A stretch of 64,000 nt of DNA, from assembly GCF_044647545.1 (NCBI RefSeq), contig NZ_CP172818.1; one strand, 5' to 3'. The stretch's first letter is position 1. Each line of letters starts with the position of its first letter. The notes under the pieces are model-generated. The model ran no database searches. It saw only the letters and a list, made by a program, of their open reading frames with translations, and was not told the DNA's origin. Shown here piece after piece: positions 4,172-45,417 of this stretch. The DNA is from Escherichia coli (lineage in GTDB: Bacteria > Pseudomonadota > Gammaproteobacteria > Enterobacterales > Enterobacteriaceae). Position numbers and translations under genes: made by a program.

Positions 4172-5119
4172 TCAGACAACTTCCTCACCGTAACGCATAG
4201 TGCTGGTACGGTTGCGCCCATCTTTCTTCGAGCGATACAGACATGTATCGGCTTCGACCATCAATTTATTAAAGTCATCGGTCAGCGTTCGGTACGATGC
4301 GCAACCACTACCGACGCCAATACTTACCGTGAGATAAAGCGTTTTTTGTTGCCAGGTGAACGGTTGCAGTTCAACGCCTTTACGGATTTTTTCCGCCATT
4401 AGCAGACCATCGACAGGATTCACCGATGGCACTGCAACAGCAAATTCCTCGCCGCCCATTCGCGCCACCAGCCCCTTATCACCGACAATCTTCTGAATAT
4501 GCTGGGCAAACACGCTTAACACTTTATCGCCACATTCATGTCCATAGTTATCGTTAATGCTTTTGAAATAGTCGATATCAAGCAGCATGACAGTCAGATG
4601 TTGTGTCTGTTTCAGCGATGGACTTTTCAGCGCCTCATAAAGACCGGACCGTGAGTAAACCTGAGTCAGAAAATCAAAGTCGGCTCGCAGCGCAACTTGC
4701 TTCATTAGCGAATTGATCGCTGCCACGCTAAAAGAAACCATAATTGGGCATATCGCCATCGTGGCAATACCGAGACGTGCGGAGAACATTTCTGGAATGG
4801 AGAATGGCGAACCGACCGAGATATCAATCACCGAATTTGCCACCAGTACGATTTCCACCGCACCGGTGACAAAGGTCAACAGACATGTTACCTGCGGCGT
4901 ATAGCGCACTGCACACCAGATTAATGCAGGCAGCGGGAACGCCAGACTCCCCGCTCCGCCAATGACTACCGAGGCAATAACCGACACAATAAGCGCGATG
5001 GCGGGCATCATCTGTTCTGCTTTAAAGCGCGGCAGCACTCCCGGAATAGCCAACGTCAGCATACAAGGCACGATCAACACGCCCGTTGAGAATTGCTCAC
5101 TGAACCAGTCCGCAAGCAA
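4172..5119 (-). CDS. dgcF: diguanylate cyclase DgcF (YneF), GGDEF-domain C-terminal portion; 5' region of the gene is disrupted in this window
   Basis: 315-aa ORF with GGEEF motif (RMGGEEFAVAV); ORF-track start is TTG at 5119; same frame stays open upstream to a stop at 5204-5206 and then runs into the A-rich tract. Confidence 0.8.
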   Translation of the reverse strand: MLADWFSEQFSTGVLIVPCMLTLAIPGVLPRFKAEQMMPAIALIVSVIASVVIGGAGSLAFPLPALIWCAVRYTPQVTCLLTFVTGAVEIVLVANSVIDISVGSPFSIPEMFSARLGIATMAICPIMVSFSVAAINSLMKQVALRADFDFLTQVYSRSGLYEALKSPSLKQTQHLTVMLLDIDYFKSINDNYGHECGDKVLSVFAQHIQKIVGDKGLVARMGGEEFAVAVPSVNPVDGLLMAEKIRKGVELQPFTWQQKTLYLTVSIGVGSGCASYRTLTDDFNKLMVEADTCLYRSKKDGRNRTSTMRYGEEVV

Positions 5120-5204
5120 AGGCCAGAAATCCAGACTATCAATACTGACCGAACCAATCCCCCAAATACCATAATAATCGGCAATCAGACAGTAATTAAA
5201 TACC

Positions 5205-5495
5205 TAACACTTACTCTCATACTTATTTTTCCCCAAACCTTATCCCCACGACCAAACGACAAAAATAAACATCATATAGAAATTGATACCAGAAACCCCC
5301 CCATCTTTACACATAAACCACACCCACAAACGACGCAAGAAGACGATAAACCAAAAAAGAAAACCCCCCAAACGAAAAAAAAAAAAAGGAAAACCAAAAA
5401 AAAAAAAAAAAAAAAAAAAAAAAGAAAAAAAAAAGAAAAAAAAAAAAAAAAGAAAGGGAAAAAAATAAAAAAGAAAAAAAAAAAAAAAAAGATAG
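5205..5495. repeat. low-complexity A-rich tract (plus strand); core 5381-5490 is roughly 90% A with an uninterrupted A28 run at 5396-5423
   Basis: Direct inspection; 5205-5380 is already nearly G-free A/C-rich sequence that degrades progressively into poly(A); normal composition resumes abruptly at about 5491 (gatagcatgttcgctgac). Confidence 0.9.
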
Positions 5496-5567
5496 CATGT
5501 TCGCTGACAGCGGCGGCAAATAAAGATACCTAATGAATGCCATTTTATCGATTTCCGTAATTATCAT
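5496..5567 (-). other. probable original 5' end of dgcF (ATG at 5567-5565 overlapping yneG stop as ATGA), now out of frame with the GGDEF part
   Basis: ORF 5307..5567 begins MIITEIDKMAFIRYLYLPPLSANMLS then reads poly-Phe through the A/T tract; its ATG shares bases with the yneG TGA. Confidence 0.4.
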
Positions 5568-5923
5568 GGCTGATTCATCTGTATAACCAGCCAGTGATAG
5601 ATTACCGTCACAATATAACGTTGTTGCTCCTCACTTAACGCTTCCCCTTGAGGAATGTTATGCCACTTAGCCAGACAACCGCGACAACAGGTCGCGGTGG
5701 CGTGTTGAGCGATAAAAACCGGATGCCCGCGCATGGGGGTTTGCTTACCGTCGTTAGCCGGTAATGCCGGAGCAAGACGTTTAGCGACAAAATCCGCCGC
5801 ATGTTGTTCGATGACTGGCGCACCTTTCTCCAGACAATACTGACGCTCTTTCATGCCCAAACGAAAGCGAGAGCGAAATTTTGAACGGGATAAACGCGCG
5901 AAGAGTGGATCGAGAGACTGCAT
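5564..5923 (-). CDS. yneG: YneG, uncharacterised, 119 aa
   Basis: 119-aa ORF; start overlaps glsB stop by 1 bp (same operon). Confidence 0.85.
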   Translation of the reverse strand: MQSLDPLFARLSRSKFRSRFRLGMKERQYCLEKGAPVIEQHAADFVAKRLAPALPANDGKQTPMRGHPVFIAQHATATCCRGCLAKWHNIPQGEALSEEQQRYIVTVIYHWLVIQMNQP

Positions 5924-18298: not shown

Positions 18299-18414
18299 TT
18301 GAAAATTATTATAACGGAAGGGTATACAAAAAAAGATTTTGCTGGCGACTGCGAAACGGCATTCGCATTAGCGGTGAAGTTTGCCCTCGCCCAGCTGCTG
18401 CAATTACTGCTATA
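18299..18414 (+). pseudogene. ydeJ: short remnant resembling the C-terminus of CinA-like YdeJ; most of the gene appears absent
   Basis: Frame ending ...DFAGDCETAFALAVKFALAQLLQLLL* 46 bp before the convergent dcp stop; only about 360 bp separate ydeI from dcp, no ATG and no upstream CinA-domain coding sequence. Confidence 0.4.
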
Positions 18415-27436: not shown

Positions 27437-28011
27437 CTACGGCAGTGCTGGCCATTCAATATCCTGTGCAGTTGACGTATCAACACGGTTCAGCAATACC
27501 CGATACTTTTTCCATGCTTCCAGCAACGGGGTTTCTTCCTCCGTTGCAATTTCCAGATCTGCAGCATCCTGAAGCGGCGCAATATGCTCACTGGCTACCT
27601 GCATCAGGTTGTTTTTTTTTCTTCCGCTTCCCGTATCCGAAACAGTTTTTCTGCTTCCTCATCATTCACCCAGGATACGCCGTCCCACTTCTGATACTCC
27701 CCTGCTGGCGACAACCAGGTGACATTCTCTGGTAGCGGTCCGAGTTCAGAAATAAACAATGCGTCCCCCGACGCCACGTCATAGACCGTTTTACCACGAT
27801 GGTCTTCAACAATATTCCACGATTCATTTTCACTGTTAAAAACTGCCACAAAGCCAGCAGGAATTTCCGGTGGGGCGATATCTGTAGAATTAGCTGGCAG
27901 CCCTGTATGAGGTGGAATATATGCGTCACCTTCACCAATAAACTCATTAGTTCCGGCCAGCAGGTTATAAATTTTTACGGTACGTGATTGTTCACTCATT
28001 CTGAATGCCAT
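27437..28011 (-). pseudogene. tfaQ: tail fibre assembly protein TfaQ, frameshifted at a 9-nt homopolymer (27612-27620)
   Basis: N-terminal frame stops after ...EAEEKKTT at 27604; the C-terminal part ([22 protein letters not shown]...DIEWPALP*) continues in another frame to a stop at 27437-27439. Confidence 0.7.
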
Positions 28012-28934
28012 TATGCAAGCCTCACAATATAATTAAATGCGATGTTTTTAACGGTGTTTTCCGCGTTACCAGCAGCGTTAACGGTGATGGTGTGTCCATG
28101 TGAACCAATCTTAACAGAGTGCGTATGAGCGCCAATACCAACAGTGTGTGCATGTGCCCCAGCACTTGTAGCGGTACCTGATACTGAGTGGGTATGTGCG
28201 CCAGAAGAAGGCACAGTTCCATTCCCCACCACCGTGCCACTTGATGAACCATCCAGCCAGTCGAAATTCATACCGCCACTGTTTGGTCTCCTTAATGGAA
28301 CGGTATGAGTATGTGCGCCAGCACTATTTGCAGTACCAGATACATTGTGGGTATGTGCACCTGTGTTATTCGTTGATTTAGTACCGTAATCAAACGACGA
28401 TGTGGTTTTCGTACCCAAATCCGTACTGGATGCGCTGGCACTGTGGGTGTGCGATTTAATGCCATCCTGTTCCTGAGACAATACGGCCCGACCACTGGCG
28501 GGTTTGCCCTTGATTGTCCAGCCGCGCATATCTGGAATAACACCAGAAGGATAGGCAATAGCCAGTTTCGGATATGCTGCCTTATCAAACGTCTGCCCCT
28601 GCATGATTGCATAACCTGCAGGTGGCGTATCTGATGGCCACGGGATTGGTGCACCGACTGGATAAAACTCTGCAGGAGGATGAGCCGAGGTGTAAAGCTG
28701 CGCCCACGGCGACCAGTTTGCGTCGGTCGTATCCCGTCGTGAACGAATAAATGCCGGAGCATGAGCACCGCTTGTACCACTCCAGCCGATGAGTAACTCA
28801 CCTTCGCCAACGGCTGTCATCCCTTTCAGGTGAATGATATTTCCATACGCTGTTGGATATCCGTTGTTATACACCTCGTATAACTCAAGACCTGCTGCCC
28901 CCTGCGTATTGTCTGTCAGCGCGGTTATATTCAC
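28011..28934 (-). CDS. stfQ: side tail fibre protein fragment StfQ (YdfN); Gly/His-rich repeats
   Basis: 307-aa ORF with repeated [11 protein letters not shown]-type units; stop overlaps tfaQ start (TAATG); the 5' end overlaps nohQ so the true start is uncertain. Confidence 0.65.
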
Positions 28935-29454
28935 TCAGCAACCCCGGTATCAGTTCATCCAGCGCGGCTGCTTTGTTCATGGCTTTGATAATATCCCGTT
29001 TCAGGAAATCAACATGTCGGTTTTCCAGTTCCGGAAAACGCCGCTGCACCGACAGGGGGAGCCCGTCGAGAATACTGGCAATTTCACCTGCGATCCGCGA
29101 CAACACGAAAGTACAGAATGCGGTTTCCACCACTTCAGCGGAGTCTCTGGCATTCTTCAGTTCCTGTGCGTCGGCCTGCGCACGCGTAAGTCGATGGCGT
29201 TCGTACTCAATAGTTCCTGGCTGGAGATCTGCCTCGCTGGCCTGCCGCAGTTCTTCAACCTCCCGGCGCAGCTTTTCGTTCTCAATTTCAGCATCCCTTT
29301 CGGCATACCATTTTATGACGGCGGCAGAGTCATAAAGCACCTCATTACCCTTGCCACCGCCTCGCAGAACGGGCATTCCCTGTTCCTGCCAGTTCTGAAT
29401 GGTACGGATACTCGCACCGAAAATGTCAGCCAGCTGCTTTTTGTTGACTTCCAT
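28885..29454 (-). CDS. nohQ: terminase small-subunit (Nu1) homologue NohQ, 189 aa with altered C-terminus
   Basis: [46 protein letters not shown]... as in lambda Nu1; C-terminal residues diverge, consistent with a deletion junction. Confidence 0.85.
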
Positions 29455-29630
29455 TGTTCATTCCACGGACAAAAACAGAGAAAGGAAACGACAGAGGCCA
29501 AAAAGCTCGCTTTCAGCACCTGTCGTTTCCTTTCTTTCAGAGGGTATTTTAAATAAAAACATTAAGTTATGACGAAGAAGAACGGAAACGCCTTAAACCG
29601 GAAATTTTTCATAAATAGCGAAAACCCGCG

Positions 29631-29642
29631 AGGTCGCCGCCC
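29631..29642. other. cosN cohesive-end site, within a lambda-like cos region (about 29455-29700)
   Basis: aggtcgccgccc is the reverse complement of lambda cosN GGGCGGCGACCT; flanks match my recollection of the lambda left end (cosB) and right end (cosQ side). Confidence 0.75.
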
Positions 29643-29841
29643 CGTAACCTGTCGGATCGCCGGAAAGGACCCGCAAAATGATAATAATTATCATCTGCAT
29701 GTCACAACGTGCATCTACGCCATCAAACCACGTCAAATAATCAATTATGACGCAGGTATCATATTAATTGATCTGCATCAACTTAACGTAAAAACAACTT
29801 CAGACAATACAAATCAGCGACACTAAATACGGGACAACCTC

Positions 29842-30075
29842 ATGTCAACGAAGAACAGAACCCGCAGAACAACAATCCGCAACATCCGCTTTCCTAACCA
29901 AATGATTGAACAAATTAACATCGCTCTTGATCAAAAAGGGTCCGGGAATTTCTCAGCCTGGGTCATTGAAGCCTGCCGCCGGAGACTGTGCTCAGAAAAA
30001 AGAGTTTCTCCTGAAGCAAACAAAGAAAAGAGTGACATTACTGAATTGCTCAGAAAACAGATCAGACCAGATTGA
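29842..30075 (+). CDS. ynfO: Qin prophage protein YnfO, 77 aa
   Basis: 77-aa ORF MSTKNRTRRTTIRNIRFPNQMIEQ... Confidence 0.75.
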   Translation: MSTKNRTRRTTIRNIRFPNQMIEQINIALDQKGSGNFSAWVIEACRRRLCSEKRVSPEANKEKSDITELLRKQIRPD

Positions 30076-30131
30076 AGCAATTTAGATAATCGTGCAGACT
30101 ACGCCCCTCATATCACATGGAAGGTACCACA

Positions 30132-30542
30132 ATGGCTCAGGTTGCCATTTTTAAACAAATATTCGATAAAGTGCGAAATAATTTAAACTATCACTGGTTT
30201 TATTCTGAACTAAAACGTCACAATGTCTCACATTACATTTACTATTTAGCTACAGAGAATATTCATCTTGTTCTTGAAAACGATAATACGGTTTTAATAA
30301 AAGGACAGGGTAAGGTTGTAAATGTAAGATTTTCAAAAAATAAATGCCTTATAGAAGCCACCTTAAAAGGATTCAAATCAGGAGAGTTATCATTTTACGA
30401 ATACAGGAAAAATCTTGCTACAGCAGGGGTTTTCAGATGGATTACAAATATCCACGAAAACAAAAGGTATTACTATACCTTTGATAATTCATTACTCTTT
30501 ACTGAGAACATTCAGAACACTACACAAATATTTCCGCACTAA
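30132..30542 (+). CDS. ydfO: Qin prophage protein YdfO, 136 aa
   Basis: Start at [13 protein letters not shown]... Confidence 0.8.
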
Positions 30543-30731
30543 ATCATAACGTCCGGTTTCTCTCACTCCTGAGCCGGACTGCATTGGTTTAATAAAAACC
30601 ATCGACAATCGAGATTTATATCTATTCGGTAATGTTTAAATATAACAAAACCCCGTAAAAACGAGGTTTATGGGTAATTTGTATTGTTGAATAGCATCTG
30701 ATGAGAAATTGATGCTAATACTATAAACATG

Positions 30732-30905
30732 CTAGATTAAATCAATCTTGATATCATAGCTTTCAAGACCAGTCATTTTTTCCCGTGCAGTAAACTGGAT
30801 ACTGGTAACTTCTTTCCCGGTCTTTTTCTTAAGCTCAATGATTTTTTTTGTTATATATTCAGAAATATCTGCTTCTGTTTTTGTTTTTAACTCTTCAATG
30901 TTCAT
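30732..30905 (-). CDS. gnsB: GnsB (GnsA/GnsB family), 57 aa
   Basis: MNIEELKTKTEADISEYITKKIIELKKKTGKEVTSIQFTAREKMTGLESYDIKIDLI. Confidence 0.85.
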   Translation of the reverse strand: MNIEELKTKTEADISEYITKKIIELKKKTGKEVTSIQFTAREKMTGLESYDIKIDLI

Positions 30906-33712: not shown

Positions 33713-33932
33713 AGCCTCACCTCCGCACGGAACGGATGGTGCAATATGTTTGAAAAGATCGGAGTCTACGGGGTAGTTTTGACAGCACACGTTGTTCTCA
33801 ACGGCGCTAAAAAAACATACACATTAAAAATGTGGGTAATTATTTTGAAAGAAAGTCATATATAAAATAATAATACGAGAAATGTTTTCATATTTAGTGT
33901 ACTGTATACGGCCATTTATACAGGAAAAGCCT

Positions 33933-34103
33933 ATGTCAGAACGTAAAAACTCAAAATCACGCCGTAATTATCTCGTTAAATGTTCCTGCCCAAACTGCAC
34001 CCAAGAGTCAGAACACAGTTTTTCAAGAGTACAAAAAGGTGCCCTTTTGATCTGCCCTCATTGCAACAAAGTATTCCAGACAAATCTTAAAGCTGTAGCC
34101 TGA
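33933..34103 (+). CDS. 56-aa zinc-ribbon small protein (two CxxC pairs); possibly the ribosome-profiling-identified small protein of this region
   Basis: AGGAAAA RBS 6 nt upstream of ATG; MSERKNSKSRRNYLVKCSCPNCTQESEHSFSRVQKGALLICPHCNKVFQTNLKAVA; hairpin downstream. Confidence 0.45.
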   Translation: MSERKNSKSRRNYLVKCSCPNCTQESEHSFSRVQKGALLICPHCNKVFQTNLKAVA

Positions 34104-34466
34104 TTGATTTTATTAGTAACAAGTATTTTTTATATTTTAATAATATATTTAAAGCAGATAATAAAAAACCCGCCTGAGCGGGTTTGAGATTGTGGTGCTT
34201 TTTGTGGGAGTCATCCACTTACGCACTTTGTTTTGCCATGCCAGCAGTTAGCTTCTGCTGTAAAACTATTCATGCAGCAAACCTGCACTTCACCACAATG
34301 GTTAGCATACTTTTCCTGATTAAGATTTTGCCAAATATGCTAGCCATTGTTTCATGTATTGGACCTCCTTACTTTTTATTAAAGAGATCCAATATTCACT
34401 ACTCTGTCCGTATCTCTACTCAGGCATCAGCCTTCTTCGTTATCGTATACAGACGAGCGATGAATT

Positions 34467-34682
34467 TTAATCAGTAATGATGACATTTGCTGCTGCAGGA
34501 CCTTTAGCACCACTCTCTATAGAGAAGGTAACCTTTTGACCTTCAAATAAGGTTCGATAATTATCATTCTGAATCGCAGAAAAATGCACAAACACATCTT
34601 TACTACCATCAACAGGAGAAATAAAGCCGAAACCTTTATCAGCGTTAAACCATTTTACTAAACCAGTCATTTTATTTGACAT
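34467..34682 (-). CDS. cspB: cold-shock protein CspB, 71 aa
   Basis: [38 protein letters not shown]... Confidence 0.9.
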
Positions 34683-34982
34683 TCTACATTCCTTAACTTG
34701 AGCCTTTCGGCATAAATGGTTTGCATAACAGAAACGACTTCGTACTTAATTGGAGAGACTCAAAGAAGGAATAAGTGAATAACACCTGAAATGAGAACTG
34801 CTTTAGTAAACTACTTCGTATATCGTCTGTTCTTCAAACCGACGCAATCATTAACGCATAGTTGAACATATGAAGCAATGTTTATTTTAGACATCCAGCC
34901 ATCTTCAACCCCATCAAAAAACTATAGCTTTCTTCAGGAACGTGTGTATAGTGCGCCAAGTTATCAGTATTAAGGAATTTTT

Positions 34983-35195
34983 TTGTCCCGTAAAATGACA
35001 GGAATTGTCAAAACCTTTGACGGCAAAAGCGGCAAGGGTCTTATCACCCCATCCGATGGTCGTATCGATGTCCAGCTTCATGTTTCAGCGCTCAATCTCC
35101 GCGATGCAGAAGAAATTACCACCGGATTACGCGTGGAATTTTGCCGGATAAATGGTCTGCGTGGCCCTTCAGCTGCCAATGTTTACCTTTCATGA
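34983..35195 (+). CDS. cspF: cold-shock-like protein CspF, 70 aa (TTG start as reported by the ORF track)
   Basis: [37 protein letters not shown]...; divergent from cspB. Confidence 0.85.
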
Positions 35196-35616
35196 GCTAT
35201 ATTAAAGCTTTAATTTCAGGCCCCATCGGATCACACATGGAGAGTTTTTATGAATAACCCCGTCTGTCTTGATGACTGGTTGATTGGCTTTAAAAGCTTA
35301 TGCTGTACTTTGGCCGTAATAGCTCTGCTAATAATATAATAAGCAGACTCATTGTGTTTAGGGACATTGTACTGGAAGAAAACATTTTAAACATCAGGCA
35401 AATAACCAAGTCACCAGCTAAATAATAAGTTAACAGACATGAGTCCCGGGATGAGATTCAACATTACCATTGCCCCATTTAAAGCACAAAACCCGCTCAT
35501 CAGCGGGTTTTCTACTTTTTCTTAACGTCGGGTATACAAAGCCCATCGTTAGGAGAATCCTAACCAAATTTTTTGAAAAATGCAAGAATCATGTCGCCAT
35601 CTTCGGCGAAAATCAT

Positions 35617-36369
35617 TTATCTCGTCACTTTTCTTAATTGCGCCTCAGCATATGCTTCTTCCTGCCAGCACTTTGTCACCAGTTTATCAATGACATCTGC
35701 ATATCCTTTGTACCACTGATAATCCGTCAGGTCTGGTACCAGCTTCTGGACATGATGCCGCGCCAGTGTGGTTGGTAAACGGCTAAACCGATTTCCATTG
35801 CAACGCCCACAAATCTTATAAACAGGCGTGCCATGAAGCCGGGTCCTTTTTTCATCCAGGACAATACCTTTACCCTTACACCCTCTGCACGCTGTGCTGA
35901 CTTCTCCCTTACCATGACAATGCTGACATAGTTCCTTCACCCACTCTTCCTTGATAACAGATTCCCCGCTTCTGGAGTGTTTCACCACTTCGCGCAATAC
36001 ATTATGAAATCCAGTACCAGCACAATGCTCACAGCGAGCCTTACTTGCCGCAGACCTGGAATAATCAGCAAAGGCAAAATTCACAAGGTAAGGGATGATC
36101 TGTAACCGGGTTTCTTCACTCAATTTGTTCAATGTCGGGTTATCCAGTGCCATCGCGTAATTGAGCAGACCTTCAATCGCAAATTGAGGATCCTGAACAC
36201 CAACTTTTGCCAGGAATAAGGCAAACCCAAGCGGTGCTTTCGACTGCACCATCCCCTGCGCAGCCATCACATCCGTAATCGTTAAACCACCTGAGCCTGT
36301 CGCCGGTGCGTCATCGCTCAATTTTGGAGATTTTGGGGAGTAATATTTTGGTAAGGCTTCAAGGTTCAT
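35617..36369 (-). CDS. quuQ: late-gene antiterminator Q homologue QuuQ, 250 aa
   Basis: 250-aa ORF with Cys-rich zinc-binding region upstream of the lysis cassette. Confidence 0.85.
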   Translation of the reverse strand: MNLEALPKYYSPKSPKLSDDAPATGSGGLTITDVMAAQGMVQSKAPLGFALFLAKVGVQDPQFAIEGLLNYAMALDNPTLNKLSEETRLQIIPYLVNFAFADYSRSAASKARCEHCAGTGFHNVLREVVKHSRSGESVIKEEWVKELCQHCHGKGEVSTACRGCKGKGIVLDEKRTRLHGTPVYKICGRCNGNRFSRLPTTLARHHVQKLVPDLTDYQWYKGYADVIDKLVTKCWQEEAYAEAQLRKVTR

Positions 36370-36564
36370 GCTCGTTCTCCACTTACGCCAGTACGCCTAT
36401 TGCCAGCGCACGATCGATAAAACGAAATATCAGCTCCAGCTGGGAACCATACATCTCTTCAAATGCCACGGTATCCGCATGCAGCTCGTCGTGATGCTTT
36501 CTGCACAAAGGCAACACGAAGAGGTCATGCGCTTTTGTACCCATTCCACCCTGACCGTGGCCTA

Positions 36565-38472: not shown

Positions 38473-38760
38473 TCAGAGAATGCGTTTGACCGCCTCGCTA
38501 TATACTTCCGAGCGTTCTCTTTTCCCAACAGAAATCACGAAAACGACAACTTTCTCGTCTATAACCTGGTATACAAGGCGATAGCCTGAAGACCGGAGCT
38601 TAATCTTGTAACAATCAGGCATACCACGGAGCTTGTTTGCTTCAATCCGGGGTGACTCAAGTACTTCAACCAGCTTCTTTTTCAACTGTTCACGTACCGT
38701 CGAGCCCAGCTTTCGCCATTCCTTTAGTGCCCGCTCGTCAAAATCCAGAAAATACGCCAT
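38473..38760 (-). CDS. relE: mRNA interferase toxin RelE, 95 aa
   Basis: MAYFLDFDERALKEWRKLGSTVREQLKKKLVEVLESPRIEANKLRG... Confidence 0.95.
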   Translation of the reverse strand: MAYFLDFDERALKEWRKLGSTVREQLKKKLVEVLESPRIEANKLRGMPDCYKIKLRSSGYRLVYQVIDEKVVVFVISVGKRERSEVYSEAVKRIL

Positions 38761-38999
38761 CAGAGTTCATCCAGCGTCACACGTACTGGCTTAGGATTAC
38801 GAAGCCGTTCTTTCACTATCTCCACAAGTTCAGCATCTTCATCACTCAGGAGTGTCTGTTTGAACGGCAAGCGTTCATTGTCAGCGATATACTCGAGCAT
38901 GAGACGAAGCGCTTCAGAAGGAGTTACACCCATTTTTTCAAGCGCGGCGTAAGAACGCGCTTTAAGTTCATCGTCAATACGCAGGTTAATGCTACCCAT
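38760..38999 (-). CDS. relB: antitoxin RelB, 79 aa
   Basis: MGSINLRIDDELKARSYAALEKMGVTPSEALRLML...; stop overlaps relE start. Confidence 0.95.
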   Translation of the reverse strand: MGSINLRIDDELKARSYAALEKMGVTPSEALRLMLEYIADNERLPFKQTLLSDEDAELVEIVKERLRNPKPVRVTLDEL

Positions 39000-39023
39000 G
39001 TCTTACACCTCTTGTAATTACAA

Positions 39024-39329
39024 ATGTCATTACAAGTATCGCACTACAACATGCTTAGGGCAAGTCACGAAGGAAGTCAGAAAGTAGTCGTAAGAACGGT
39101 GATCACTGTCCGCTTTGTGCCAGGAGCAGCCATTGCTAAGTCCATCCTGTATTGTGCAGGTCAGCTCGTTTTTAAAGAGTCCGGCCATCATCTTACTGGT
39201 ACAGACACCATATACTTTGTGACGGTCAGGCTACATATGCACAACTCAACTTATTCATCTATTTTTTGCTTTAGCATGTCAGTGTTGCTTTCTCGTCGGC
39301 GGGTGAGCGGTGACCTGACCTGTCGATAA
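39024..39329 (+). CDS. ydfV: Qin prophage protein YdfV, 101 aa
   Basis: 101-aa ORF; weak coding signal. Confidence 0.6.
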   Translation: MSLQVSHYNMLRASHEGSQKVVVRTVITVRFVPGAAIAKSILYCAGQLVFKESGHHLTGTDTIYFVTVRLHMHNSTYSSIFCFSMSVLLSRRRVSGDLTCR

Positions 39330-39531
39330 AGGAACGTAACACGTTTTATGCAACACCCGCATGCGGCAGAAAATTATTGCCGAACGTTTACCCCTGTCAA
39401 CAAGCTTTACTTTCTGAGGCGCGCCAGCCCGCGAGGAAAACAATCTGAACATCAAACAATTAATGACACAAGAAATACGATTAAAGATTTTTTTGTGCAT
39501 GCCGATAGTGCTTTTTTAAAAGGAGAAATCT

Positions 39532-39864
39532 ATGTCTGTCACAATTCAGGGAAATACCTCAACCGTTATTTCAAACAACTCCGCCCCGGAAGGAACATCA
39601 GAAATAGCCAAAATCACAAGACAAATTCAGGTGCTGACTGAAAAGCTTGGGAAAATCTCATCGGAAGAGGGGATGACGACACAGCAGAAAAAAGAAATGG
39701 CTGCATTGGTACAGAAGCAAATTGAAAGCCTCTGGGCTCAACTGGAGCAGTTGTTAAGGCAGCAGGCAGAGAAAAAGAATGAAGACGCGACAGTTCAGCC
39801 TGATAAAAAAGAAGAGAAAAAAGACGATACAAATACCGCTGGCACCATTGATATTTACGTCTAA
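39532..39864 (+). CDS. flxA: FlxA (flagellar-regulon sigma-28-dependent protein), 110 aa
   Basis: 110-aa Lys/Glu-rich ORF; GGAG RBS; terminator follows. Confidence 0.85.
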   Translation: MSVTIQGNTSTVISNNSAPEGTSEIAKITRQIQVLTEKLGKISSEEGMTTQQKKEMAALVQKQIESLWAQLEQLLRQQAEKKNEDATVQPDKKEEKKDDTNTAGTIDIYV

Positions 39865-39877
39865 GTGACAGCCGTAT

Positions 39878-39902
39878 TGTGGCCCTCATCGGGCCACTTT
39901 TC
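39878..39902 (+). terminator. rho-independent terminator after flxA
   Basis: gtggccctcatcgggccac hairpin followed by ttttc. Confidence 0.6.
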
Positions 39903-40248
39903 GCCATCAGCCTTTTCTTTAAAGACATATTATCTTTGTATCATTTCTGATAGTTAACATTACAAGATATAAGTAATGGACGCACTCCCAATTAGTCTAT
40001 TTAAATCGCCACGAGTTTAACTGACAACCCATGATCAATTATGAATTGCAACTATTTCTGTAGTCACTTTTGTGGGGACAGTCCACAAAACTGCCAACTT
40101 CCGCTTCTTGCTCTTAGCGGACATTAGCATAGGCTATTTACCATAACGCCTCATTACGCGCACCGCCCAGACTGACTCAGCGCGTTTCTGGCATATCCCC
40201 GGTAAAACAAGTAACAAACCACCCGAAAATGAACACCAGAAACGCGAC

Positions 40249-40476
40249 TTAAGAATCTACCCTATGAATGGATATGCACTCAACCGAATCGATCTTGGTT
40301 TCAATCTTTTTTATCGGGATCAGGCTTCTTTTTAGGTAACTTCGGGGGCTTAACTTGCTGATGACTTTGCGTTCGGCGCGTAAGCCAGGGATGGTCAGCT
40401 TTAGGTTTAACATAGTATTTTGAGCGTAAATCAATACGGGCATTATCCACTCGTTCATGGACACTCTTTTCATCAT
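40249..40476 (-). pseudogene. ydfW: integrase-like fragment YdfW (IntK remnant)
   Basis: 75-aa ORF with weak similarity to the C-terminal end of tyrosine recombinases; far too short to be functional. Confidence 0.55.
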
Positions 40477-40763
40477 CCAGTGGTAGCCTCCATAATTGCA
40501 GGCACTAGCGCCGTGAACTTTTCACGCTTATCCCTAGTGTCGATAGCCTTCCAGCGTTCGAATATCTTCACTCGATTAACGCCAAGCGCTCGCTGATCAA
40601 CCGCGCCACCTTCATCTGTGACACGCTGAACATCGATGTTCGGGCGCTCTTTCAAAGCCCAGAATGCTTCAGTGATTAATATCGTCGCCTGCTCCTGTGT
40701 CATTCCTGGTCGACATATCCAGGCATCCAGAGCCTCACGAGCCTGTTCAGGAGTGATTTTCAT
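40473..40763 (-). CDS. ydfX: Qin prophage protein YdfX, 96 aa
   Basis: 96-aa ORF overlapping dicC stop. Confidence 0.7.
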   Translation of the reverse strand: MKITPEQAREALDAWICRPGMTQEQATILITEAFWALKERPNIDVQRVTDEGGAVDQRALGVNRVKIFERWKAIDTRDKREKFTALVPAIMEATTG

Positions 40764-43317: not shown

Positions 43318-44232
43318 ATGAGTAAAGTCTTTATTTGCGCCGCCATTCCGGACGAACAGGCAATAAAGGAAGAAGGTGCCGTCGCTGTAGCCACTGCCAT
43401 TGAAGCCGGTGATGAACGTCGCGCCCGCGCAAAATTTCACTGGCAATTCCTGGAACATTATCCGGCTGCTCAGGACTGCGCTTATAAATTTCTTGTTTGC
43501 GAGGATAAACCCGGTATACCCCGCCCTGCCCTCGATTCCTGGGATGCTGAATATATGCAGGAAAACCGCTGGGATGAGGCGTCTGCTTCCTTTGTCCCGG
43601 TCGAGACTGAATCCGATCCGATGAACGTCACTTTTGACAACCTAGCCCCTGAAGTACAGAACGCTGTCATGGTTAAGTTCGACACATGTGAAAACATCAC
43701 TGTTGATATGGTGATTAGCGCACAGGAATTGTTGCAGGAAGACATGGCAACATTCGACGGCCATATCGTTGAAGCGTTGATGAAAATGCCAGAAGTTAAC
43801 GCTATGTATCCGGAGCTTAAGCTGCATGCCATCGGGTGGGTTAAGCATAAATGTAAGCCTGGTGCCAAATGGCCCGAAATTCAGGCAGAGATGCGCATCT
43901 GGAAAAAACGTCGCGAAGGTGAACGCAAGGAAGCCGGAAAATACACGTCTGTTGTTGATCTCGCCCGCGCCAGAGCCAATCAACAGCACACTGAAAATTC
44001 AACAGGAAAAATCAACCCGGTCATTGCTGCCATTCATCGCGAATACAAGCAGACATGGAAAACACTGGATGACGAACTGGCCTACGCTCTCTGGCCTGGT
44101 GATGTGGATGCCGGAAACATTGACGGCAGCATCCATCGCTGGGCAAAAAATGAAGTTATCGACAACGACCGCGAAGACTGGAAGCGTATCTCGGCATCAA
44201 TGCGCAAACAGCCTGATGCCCTTCGCTCACGA

Positions 44233-44256
<24 letters not shown>
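43318..44256 (+). CDS. ydfE: Qin prophage protein YdfE; last few codons read into the IS2-like remnant
   Basis: 312-aa ORF; from about 44233 the DNA is IS2 insD-like (cgccagaatgcgctgttgcttga...), so the C-terminus is insertion-derived. Confidence 0.75.
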
Positions 44257-44917
<661 letters not shown>

Positions 44918-45417
44918 GTGATAAGAGAAGTCTGAAAGAGAAATATCCGACAGGCGTGGAAAACCATGGAGGGAAATTACGTATCTGTTTTTTATAAAGG
45001 CGTAAGAGCAGGGAAAACCTGGGGGTCGAAAAAGGAAAAAAAAGGCGCGTTGCAGGTGAGCTACGCGCCTCTGTTTGTTACGCAATAAAAACTGGTGTTT
45101 TCGACTATGCAAAACAGTTTCCCTCCTCACGCAATCTGGAAAAATTTGGTGAGGCCCGACAAGATTTAACCATAAAAGAACTGGCTGAAAAATTTCTGGC
45201 ACTGAAAGAAACTGAAGTCGCAAAAACATCACTCAACACATACCGTGCCGTCATCAAAAATATCCTGAGCATAATCGGTGAAAAAAATCTTGCCTCATCG
45301 ATTAATAAAGAAAAATTACTGGAGGTTCGTAAAGAGCTACTGACTGGATACCAGATCCCCAAAAGTAACTATATTGTTACACAACCAGGGAGATCGGCTG
45401 TAACTGTAAATAATTAC

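Follow-up and report, generated by a model that had tools for sequence, protein, structure and literature searches.

Full-length dgcF of Escherichia coli, as found in FDAARGOS_497 (NZ_CP033850.1), the genome with a normal locus that was used for comparison, is a gene of 1,419 nt that encodes a 472-aa 'sensor domain-containing diguanylate cyclase'. In Pfam, the GGDEF domain was placed at residues 303-461 of the 472-aa protein, and no family was returned for its N-terminal membrane 'sensor' region of about 300 residues. E. coli K-12 MG1655, on the other hand, has a clean deletion of exactly 498 bp in this gene (at MG1655 1,611,892/1,611,893), with the junction ...CTGACCGAACCAA joined to GATAGCATG... 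(GAACCAA followed directly by GATAGC). The deletion takes away codons 1-144 plus 65 nt upstream, and because of it the annotated K-12 protein (b1522, yneF) begins at a TTG and has a length of 315 aa. Set against the 472-aa form of most strains, the much-studied DgcF of K-12 is therefore an N-terminally truncated, promoter-less allele.

Among 5,426 complete genomes, the locus was present in 5,414 and its 5' segment in 4,197; therefore about 1,200 genomes are without the segment (~1,217, a figure that comes from the presence counts, as the 60-nt K-12 junction query was not clean, its 30-nt halves also being joined across the 498 bp). Judged from these genome sequences, the 498-bp deletion is a common natural allele. 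The literature searched on dgcF in K-12 yielded work on Shigella, in which the deletion is not discussed.

Bacterial assemblies built on a reference are subject to reference bias and carry-over: they adopt the architecture of the reference, retain uncovered reference sequence verbatim and miss large insertions of the sample, and their anomalies cluster at structural differences from the reference. All of these features recur in the window, the 64,000-nt stretch of DNA that was analysed here at its full length. An insertion of 498 bp is usually omitted or soft-clipped in such assemblies, whereas that of the window is partly rebuilt and decays into poly-A, a combination which suggests that a pileup or polishing step on long reads was involved. 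Insertions are encoded in offset-indexed columns by pileup-based long-read consensus tools and polishers. Such columns are predicted to give a loss of register that starts at the left anchor, calls that drift toward 'gap' or the most frequent base, an abrupt recovery on the right and a plus-strand direction, as is seen in the window.

The A-rich tract and its relation to the dgcF 5' segment

The 3' part of dgcF (4172-5157, minus strand; codons about 145-472, including GGDEF) is intact in the window and matches the FDAARGOS_497 allele. The sole open GGDEF frame, which the first-pass annotation had correctly described as an ORF at 4172-5119 (minus) without ATG, is of 315 aa and begins at the TTG at 5119, which is the start annotated for K-12 b1522 and not the full-length start. 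In this respect the window resembles the K-12-type truncated gene, yet it differs from it by a degraded 333-nt insert at the junction and by flanking alleles of the FDAARGOS_497 type: instead of the clean K-12 junction, 333 nt lie between the halves CTGACCGAACCAA and GATAGCATG. The full-length gene, as in FDAARGOS_497 and in about 4,200 complete genomes, is matched over its 3' 986 nt and over the spacer, but its 5' end is represented in the window by a degraded copy, a difference that we ascribe to assembly and not to the organism.

The degraded A-rich tract (5158-5490, minus strand with respect to dgcF; 333 nt), which was delimited by alignments, exact anchors and the error spectrum, is placed between uxaB and yneG. 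The last normal base is 5157, and in the alignment the first wrong base is the third after it. Along the plus strand G is lost first, then T and then C, followed by runs of A (13, 28, 10, 16 and 17 nt, all within 5375-5490; the A28 run is at 5396-5423). Normal composition comes back abruptly at 5491, at GATAGCATGTTCGC. Across 5350-5499 the GC content is 0.11-0.17 and the AT skew reaches about 1.0. With an A content of 0.27 in the window, the expected number of runs of at least 28 A per 64 kb is 5.6e-12, and chance cannot explain the tract. Thus the A-rich collapse with its A28 run, as reported in the first-pass annotation, is borne out by the sequence, but the limits given there (5205-5567) were misplaced: the tract starts at 5158 and ends at 5490, while 5491-5567 is normal. 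The normal remainder of the dgcF-yneG intergenic spacer (5491-5563) belongs to a block (5487-27548) in which identity to FDAARGOS_497 is 99.986% and which contains one mismatch over its 22 kb. Beyond the spacer comes an intact yneG (DUF4186; 5564-5923, minus).

Translated on the minus strand, the tract yields poly-Phe and stops, among them the stop at 5204-5206 (both as described previously), and the record's version of dgcF is untranslatable. Two spurious ORFs arise at the tract: one of 146 aa on the plus strand (5093-5533), which is Lys-rich, and one of 86 aa on the minus strand (5307-5567), which is poly-Phe. The latter opens with the ATG at 5567-5565 that had been taken for the original dgcF start; it is an ORF in the dgcF-yneG spacer, and the true ATG is 66 nt to the left of 5491, within the destroyed stretch. 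Either of the two ORFs could be called as a gene by automated annotation.

Alignment to FDAARGOS_497 revealed flanks that are identical and a tract in which the normal sequence is reproduced position for position, but in degraded form. The window holds 333 nt, against 498 nt of true sequence, between the exact anchors and is thus 165 nt (33%) shorter. The 498 nt so replaced consist of dgcF codons 1-144 plus 65 nt upstream, and they are exactly the segment deleted in K-12 MG1655, both ends coinciding (the MG1655 deletion site corresponds to window 5157/5491). The number of matches per 50 true nt, from left to right, is 44, 43, 38, 36, 33, 24, 22, 18, 22 and 18. The errors are of nearly one kind: true A's were retained at 164 of 167 positions, while for C, G and T, 162 were deleted and 34 replaced by A, with one other substitution. 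Of the true segment 33.5% is A, more than any other base; G, the least frequent, is the first to vanish in the tract. The earlier description of real sequence degraded toward A therefore fits the tract itself, which is a base-for-base degraded dgcF 5' region.

In the alignments to FDAARGOS_497 and to K-12, neither foreign sequence nor a target-site duplication was found at the tract. As nothing foreign was inserted, the other reading offered by the first-pass annotation, that of a dgcF pseudogene bearing some bizarre insertion or replacement, is unsupported. Comparison with K-12 and other E. coli, which that annotation had called for, identified the tract with 498 nt that are missing from MG1655 and intact elsewhere: 4,191 of the 5,426 complete genomes contain the intact reference stretch (521 nt) over 80% or more of its length, and nearly all records that match this stretch are at least 95% identical to it. 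When the tract alone was used as query (megablast and blastn), one record, BS-04, covered at least 80% of it, and otherwise its first 110 nt matched normal dgcF. Of the 5,426 complete genomes, one (BS-04) thus carries such a tract, and it has a K-12 mosaic pattern too.

Mosaic relation of the window to MG1655 and FDAARGOS_497

At about 97-98% identity, the window is collinear with MG1655 1,606,727-1,670,496, and the collinearity extends through the Qin remnant and the truncated IS2E. Its alleles are those of FDAARGOS_497: four clean blocks are common to both at 99.88-99.99% identity, and 213 of 256 bins of 250 nt are at least 99.5% identical. Nevertheless the window is without the 24-kb prophage morphogenesis block of FDAARGOS_497 and without the distal part of its exonuclease-xis region. 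Two stretches, at 33751-35500 and 38501-40500, are absent from FDAARGOS_497 and, by binned identity, 100.0% identical to MG1655, although outside them the window is 2-3% diverged from MG1655. On the strength of this comparison, both stretches are read as reference sequence carried over verbatim, in which case the sample may lack the genes of the cspB/cspF and relBE/hokD/flxA regions of Qin that they contain. Horizontal transfer could in principle have given a natural strain Qin segments identical to those of K-12, which would run counter to the artefact reading.

Two further stretches of the prophage region, 27501-30750 and 35501-36500, share 66-98% identity with K-12, show no bias in their substitutions and are without a counterpart in the FDAARGOS_497 region. 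Reads of other lambdoid prophages, mapped onto tfaQ/stfQ/nohA and ydfT/ydfU of K-12, probably gave rise to the consensus here, and the gene sequences in these stretches are unreliable. Separately, at 18335/18336, the window is short of 478 bp that K-12 has in its ydeJ region. The same truncation of ydeJ exists in FDAARGOS_497, where the gene is annotated as a partial 2-oxo-tetronate isomerase; the deletion is probably a genuine one of the sample strain that was handled correctly.

A second tract of the same A-decay kind is located at 44241-44452 (A34 at 44406-44439), downstream of the ydfE/IS2E junction of K-12, whose counterpart in the window is position 44084. Up to about 44240 the sequence is that of the intact prophage exonuclease allele, and it then passes into IS2 at a CGCCAGA heptamer common to both. 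Past this switch, a blend of the exonuclease allele and IS2 is followed by a collapse into poly-A and then by noisy IS2 that recovers gradually (44453-44937, plus strand; 89.7% identity to K-12 with 14 gap openings), in which 32 of the 50 differences from K-12 are toward A. At this second site the decay sets in only after about 156 nt past the K-12 junction that are almost free of errors. Both poly-A tracts are located at structural differences from K-12, and both decay along the K-12 plus strand.

The record that shares the dgcF tract, BS-04 (NZ_CP172819.1, assembly GCF_044648255.1; 4.52 Mb, 'complete' in RefSeq), has K-12-type dgcF flanks with alleles that differ from those of the window. 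Its dgcF decay spans the interval affected in the window, and normal sequence resumes at the identical base, with matches per 50 nt falling from 48 to 26 and with C11 and G9 runs in the tract. The early errors are partly common to both records, in that the same G's were dropped. BS-04 also has the exact Qin/IS2E layout of K-12, together with many frameshifted genes, and 19 of 100 of its bins are 100% identical to MG1655 (including a 7-kb run) within a core that is 1-3% diverged. According to the first-pass annotation, the same tract in independent high-quality E. coli genomes would have indicated a real conserved feature. A similar tract does occur in BS-04, but given the same K-12 mosaic pattern and the many frameshifted genes, that record is not an independent high-quality genome and does not confirm a real tract. 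On sequence grounds it would therefore be a second example of the process that shaped the window. The account of how BS-04 was assembled was searched for in the literature and was not found.

A probable reference-guided consensus and alternative origins of the tract

Taken together, the window and its tract are, with high probability, an artefact of a reference-guided consensus on K-12 MG1655 and not biology. The footprint left in the sequence suggests that the record was not assembled de novo, and it is from this footprint that we infer the pipeline. Gene order and structural variants follow MG1655, and alleles follow FDAARGOS_497 (at least 99.9%). Segments missing from FDAARGOS_497 are identical to MG1655, while shared segments are diverged from it. 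Finally, tract 1 corresponds to the 498-bp K-12 deletion and tract 2 to the ydfE/IS2E junction. The preference for an artefact that had been expressed from the letters alone is thus upheld, both by the falling fidelity with which the tract aligns to normal dgcF and by the marks of a K-12-guided consensus across the window.

Under this explanation, reads of an E. coli essentially identical to FDAARGOS_497 in this region would have been laid onto the MG1655 chromosome and a consensus called. Where sequence was shared, the consensus would reproduce the sample strain; where K-12 sequence was missing from the sample, so that no reads mapped, the reference would have been kept verbatim; and where sample sequence was missing from K-12, the inserted bases would have been badly rebuilt and large insertions lost. 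Because K-12 has its natural 498-bp deletion, the dgcF 5' segment is an insertion relative to the reference. Its bases may have been piled up according to their distance from the left anchor, with no re-alignment to one another, and therefore indel differences from read to read would push the insertion columns progressively out of register. The call at each column would then tend toward 'gap' or toward A, the base most frequent locally, so that G, T and C vanish and the tract shortens, until register is regained instantly at the right anchor. On this reading, the sample itself most likely carries an ordinary full-length dgcF of 472 aa.

Observations on fidelity agree with such an offset pileup, as it declines along the reference plus strand, starting at the left anchor, and is restored at once where the right anchor is reached. 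In a naive simulation with left-justified majority voting, A enrichment (to 0.45-0.57), G depletion and blurred homopolymer runs were reproduced, but the 33% shortening, the end state of roughly 90% A and the slow initial decay were not. The simulated columns gave blurred C and T runs with almost no shortening, whereas the errors of the window are nearly purely deletions or changes to A; the tract of BS-04, with its C11 and G9 runs, is nearer to the simulation than that of the window. In addition, the ~156 clean nt past the second junction are not predicted by a pure offset-pileup model. As the naive simulation fits only in part, no specific program is named. A neural polisher, the consensus function of a mapper or an iterative extension acting on such columns is a plausible engine. 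The literature was searched for a published description of this poly-A decay artefact, and none was found.

Of the other origins considered, a synthetic or computational one, in which the window would be the output of a generative model or a deliberately corrupted or imputed sequence, is improbable. The first-pass annotation had listed this possibility, none of the complete E. coli genomes of RefSeq is an exact match to the window, and the second site does resemble an interpolation between two alleles ahead of a low-complexity collapse. However, 22 kb with a single mismatch to one strain, set beside blocks of 100% identity to K-12, look like a product of read mapping and would not be expected from model sampling. 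Moreover, a deposited RefSeq genome of a real isolate, BS-04, has the same phenomenon, which makes a synthetic origin unnecessary.

A failure of sequencing or basecalling specific to this locus (through DNA modification, a signal problem or secondary structure, for instance), within a record otherwise assembled de novo, is also quite improbable. The window and BS-04 fail over the same interval and drop the same G's early, so the defect could be a property of the sequence. Yet its limits correspond to no feature of the full-length sequence but to the breakpoints of the K-12-type deletion, the intact reference stretch is present over at least 80% of its length in the 4,191 complete genomes mentioned above, and the second tract is in unrelated sequence, again at a K-12 breakpoint. 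Nor would the K-12 architecture and the K-12-identical stretches be expected from a de novo assembly of an FDAARGOS_497-like strain. A basecalling failure intrinsic to the locus was dropped for the coincidence of the tract with the K-12 deletion breakpoints and for the chimeric make-up of the window.

It is very improbable that the tract is real DNA and dgcF a pseudogene in which, for instance, slippage during replication, a retroelement tail or targeted mutagenesis has replaced or hypermutated the 5' part, even though the tract stands in the record and a related one in a RefSeq genome. The erosion toward A is graded and one-directional, preserves A's and ends abruptly, and we know of no mutational mechanism that removes G, T and C in this manner while keeping A. 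Its limits match the deletion of a different allele, the same pattern recurs in a genome of a different lineage (BS-04), the alignments contain neither a target-site duplication nor foreign sequence, and the rest of the window is no faithful picture of any one genome. Least credible of all is a directional process that erodes non-A bases at the dgcF 5' end, recurs in unrelated lineages and is bounded by the K-12 deletion sites; were the tract physically present, both dgcF breakpoints would form a hotspot prone to recombination or repair.

Specific elements were considered as well. A homopolymeric or contingency tract, or the poly(A) tail of a retroelement, was rejected, since the tract replaces homologous sequence base for base with no duplication and is absent from all but one of the 5,426 complete genomes, that one being a K-12 mosaic. 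A diversity-generating retroelement was likewise rejected: it would alter positions that are A in the template, and here the opposite is seen, with A kept and C, G and T lost or changed to A.

Implications for records of this kind

If the window is indeed a K-12-guided consensus, the tract is a data-quality problem with no new biology, and the strain almost certainly has an ordinary full-length dgcF. As a K-12-scaffolded chimera, the window would be an unreliable basis for inferring gene presence or absence, prophage content, pseudogenes or structure, and this extends to the Qin region at 27.5-45 kb. A quality flag appears warranted for the record of the window and for RefSeq entries built in a similar way, as at least one 'complete genome' (BS-04) has the same artefact. 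Such records could be screened for by two marks, namely poly-A tracts exactly at indels relative to MG1655 and blocks of 100% identity to MG1655 in an otherwise diverged genome. On the garbled tract of BS-04, a Lys-rich 'hypothetical protein' (WP_400165721.1) has been annotated by PGAP/RefSeq.

One further record was encountered in these comparisons. BHUCD02 (NZ_CM183444.1, assembly GCF_059511115.1), from human stool in India, measures 4,641,766 bp against the 4,641,652 bp of MG1655 and carries the exact ydfE/IS2E/intQ pseudogene layout of K-12. It is the best match to the IS2 region of the window (96.6%) and may be another K-12-scaffolded or K-12-derived record.
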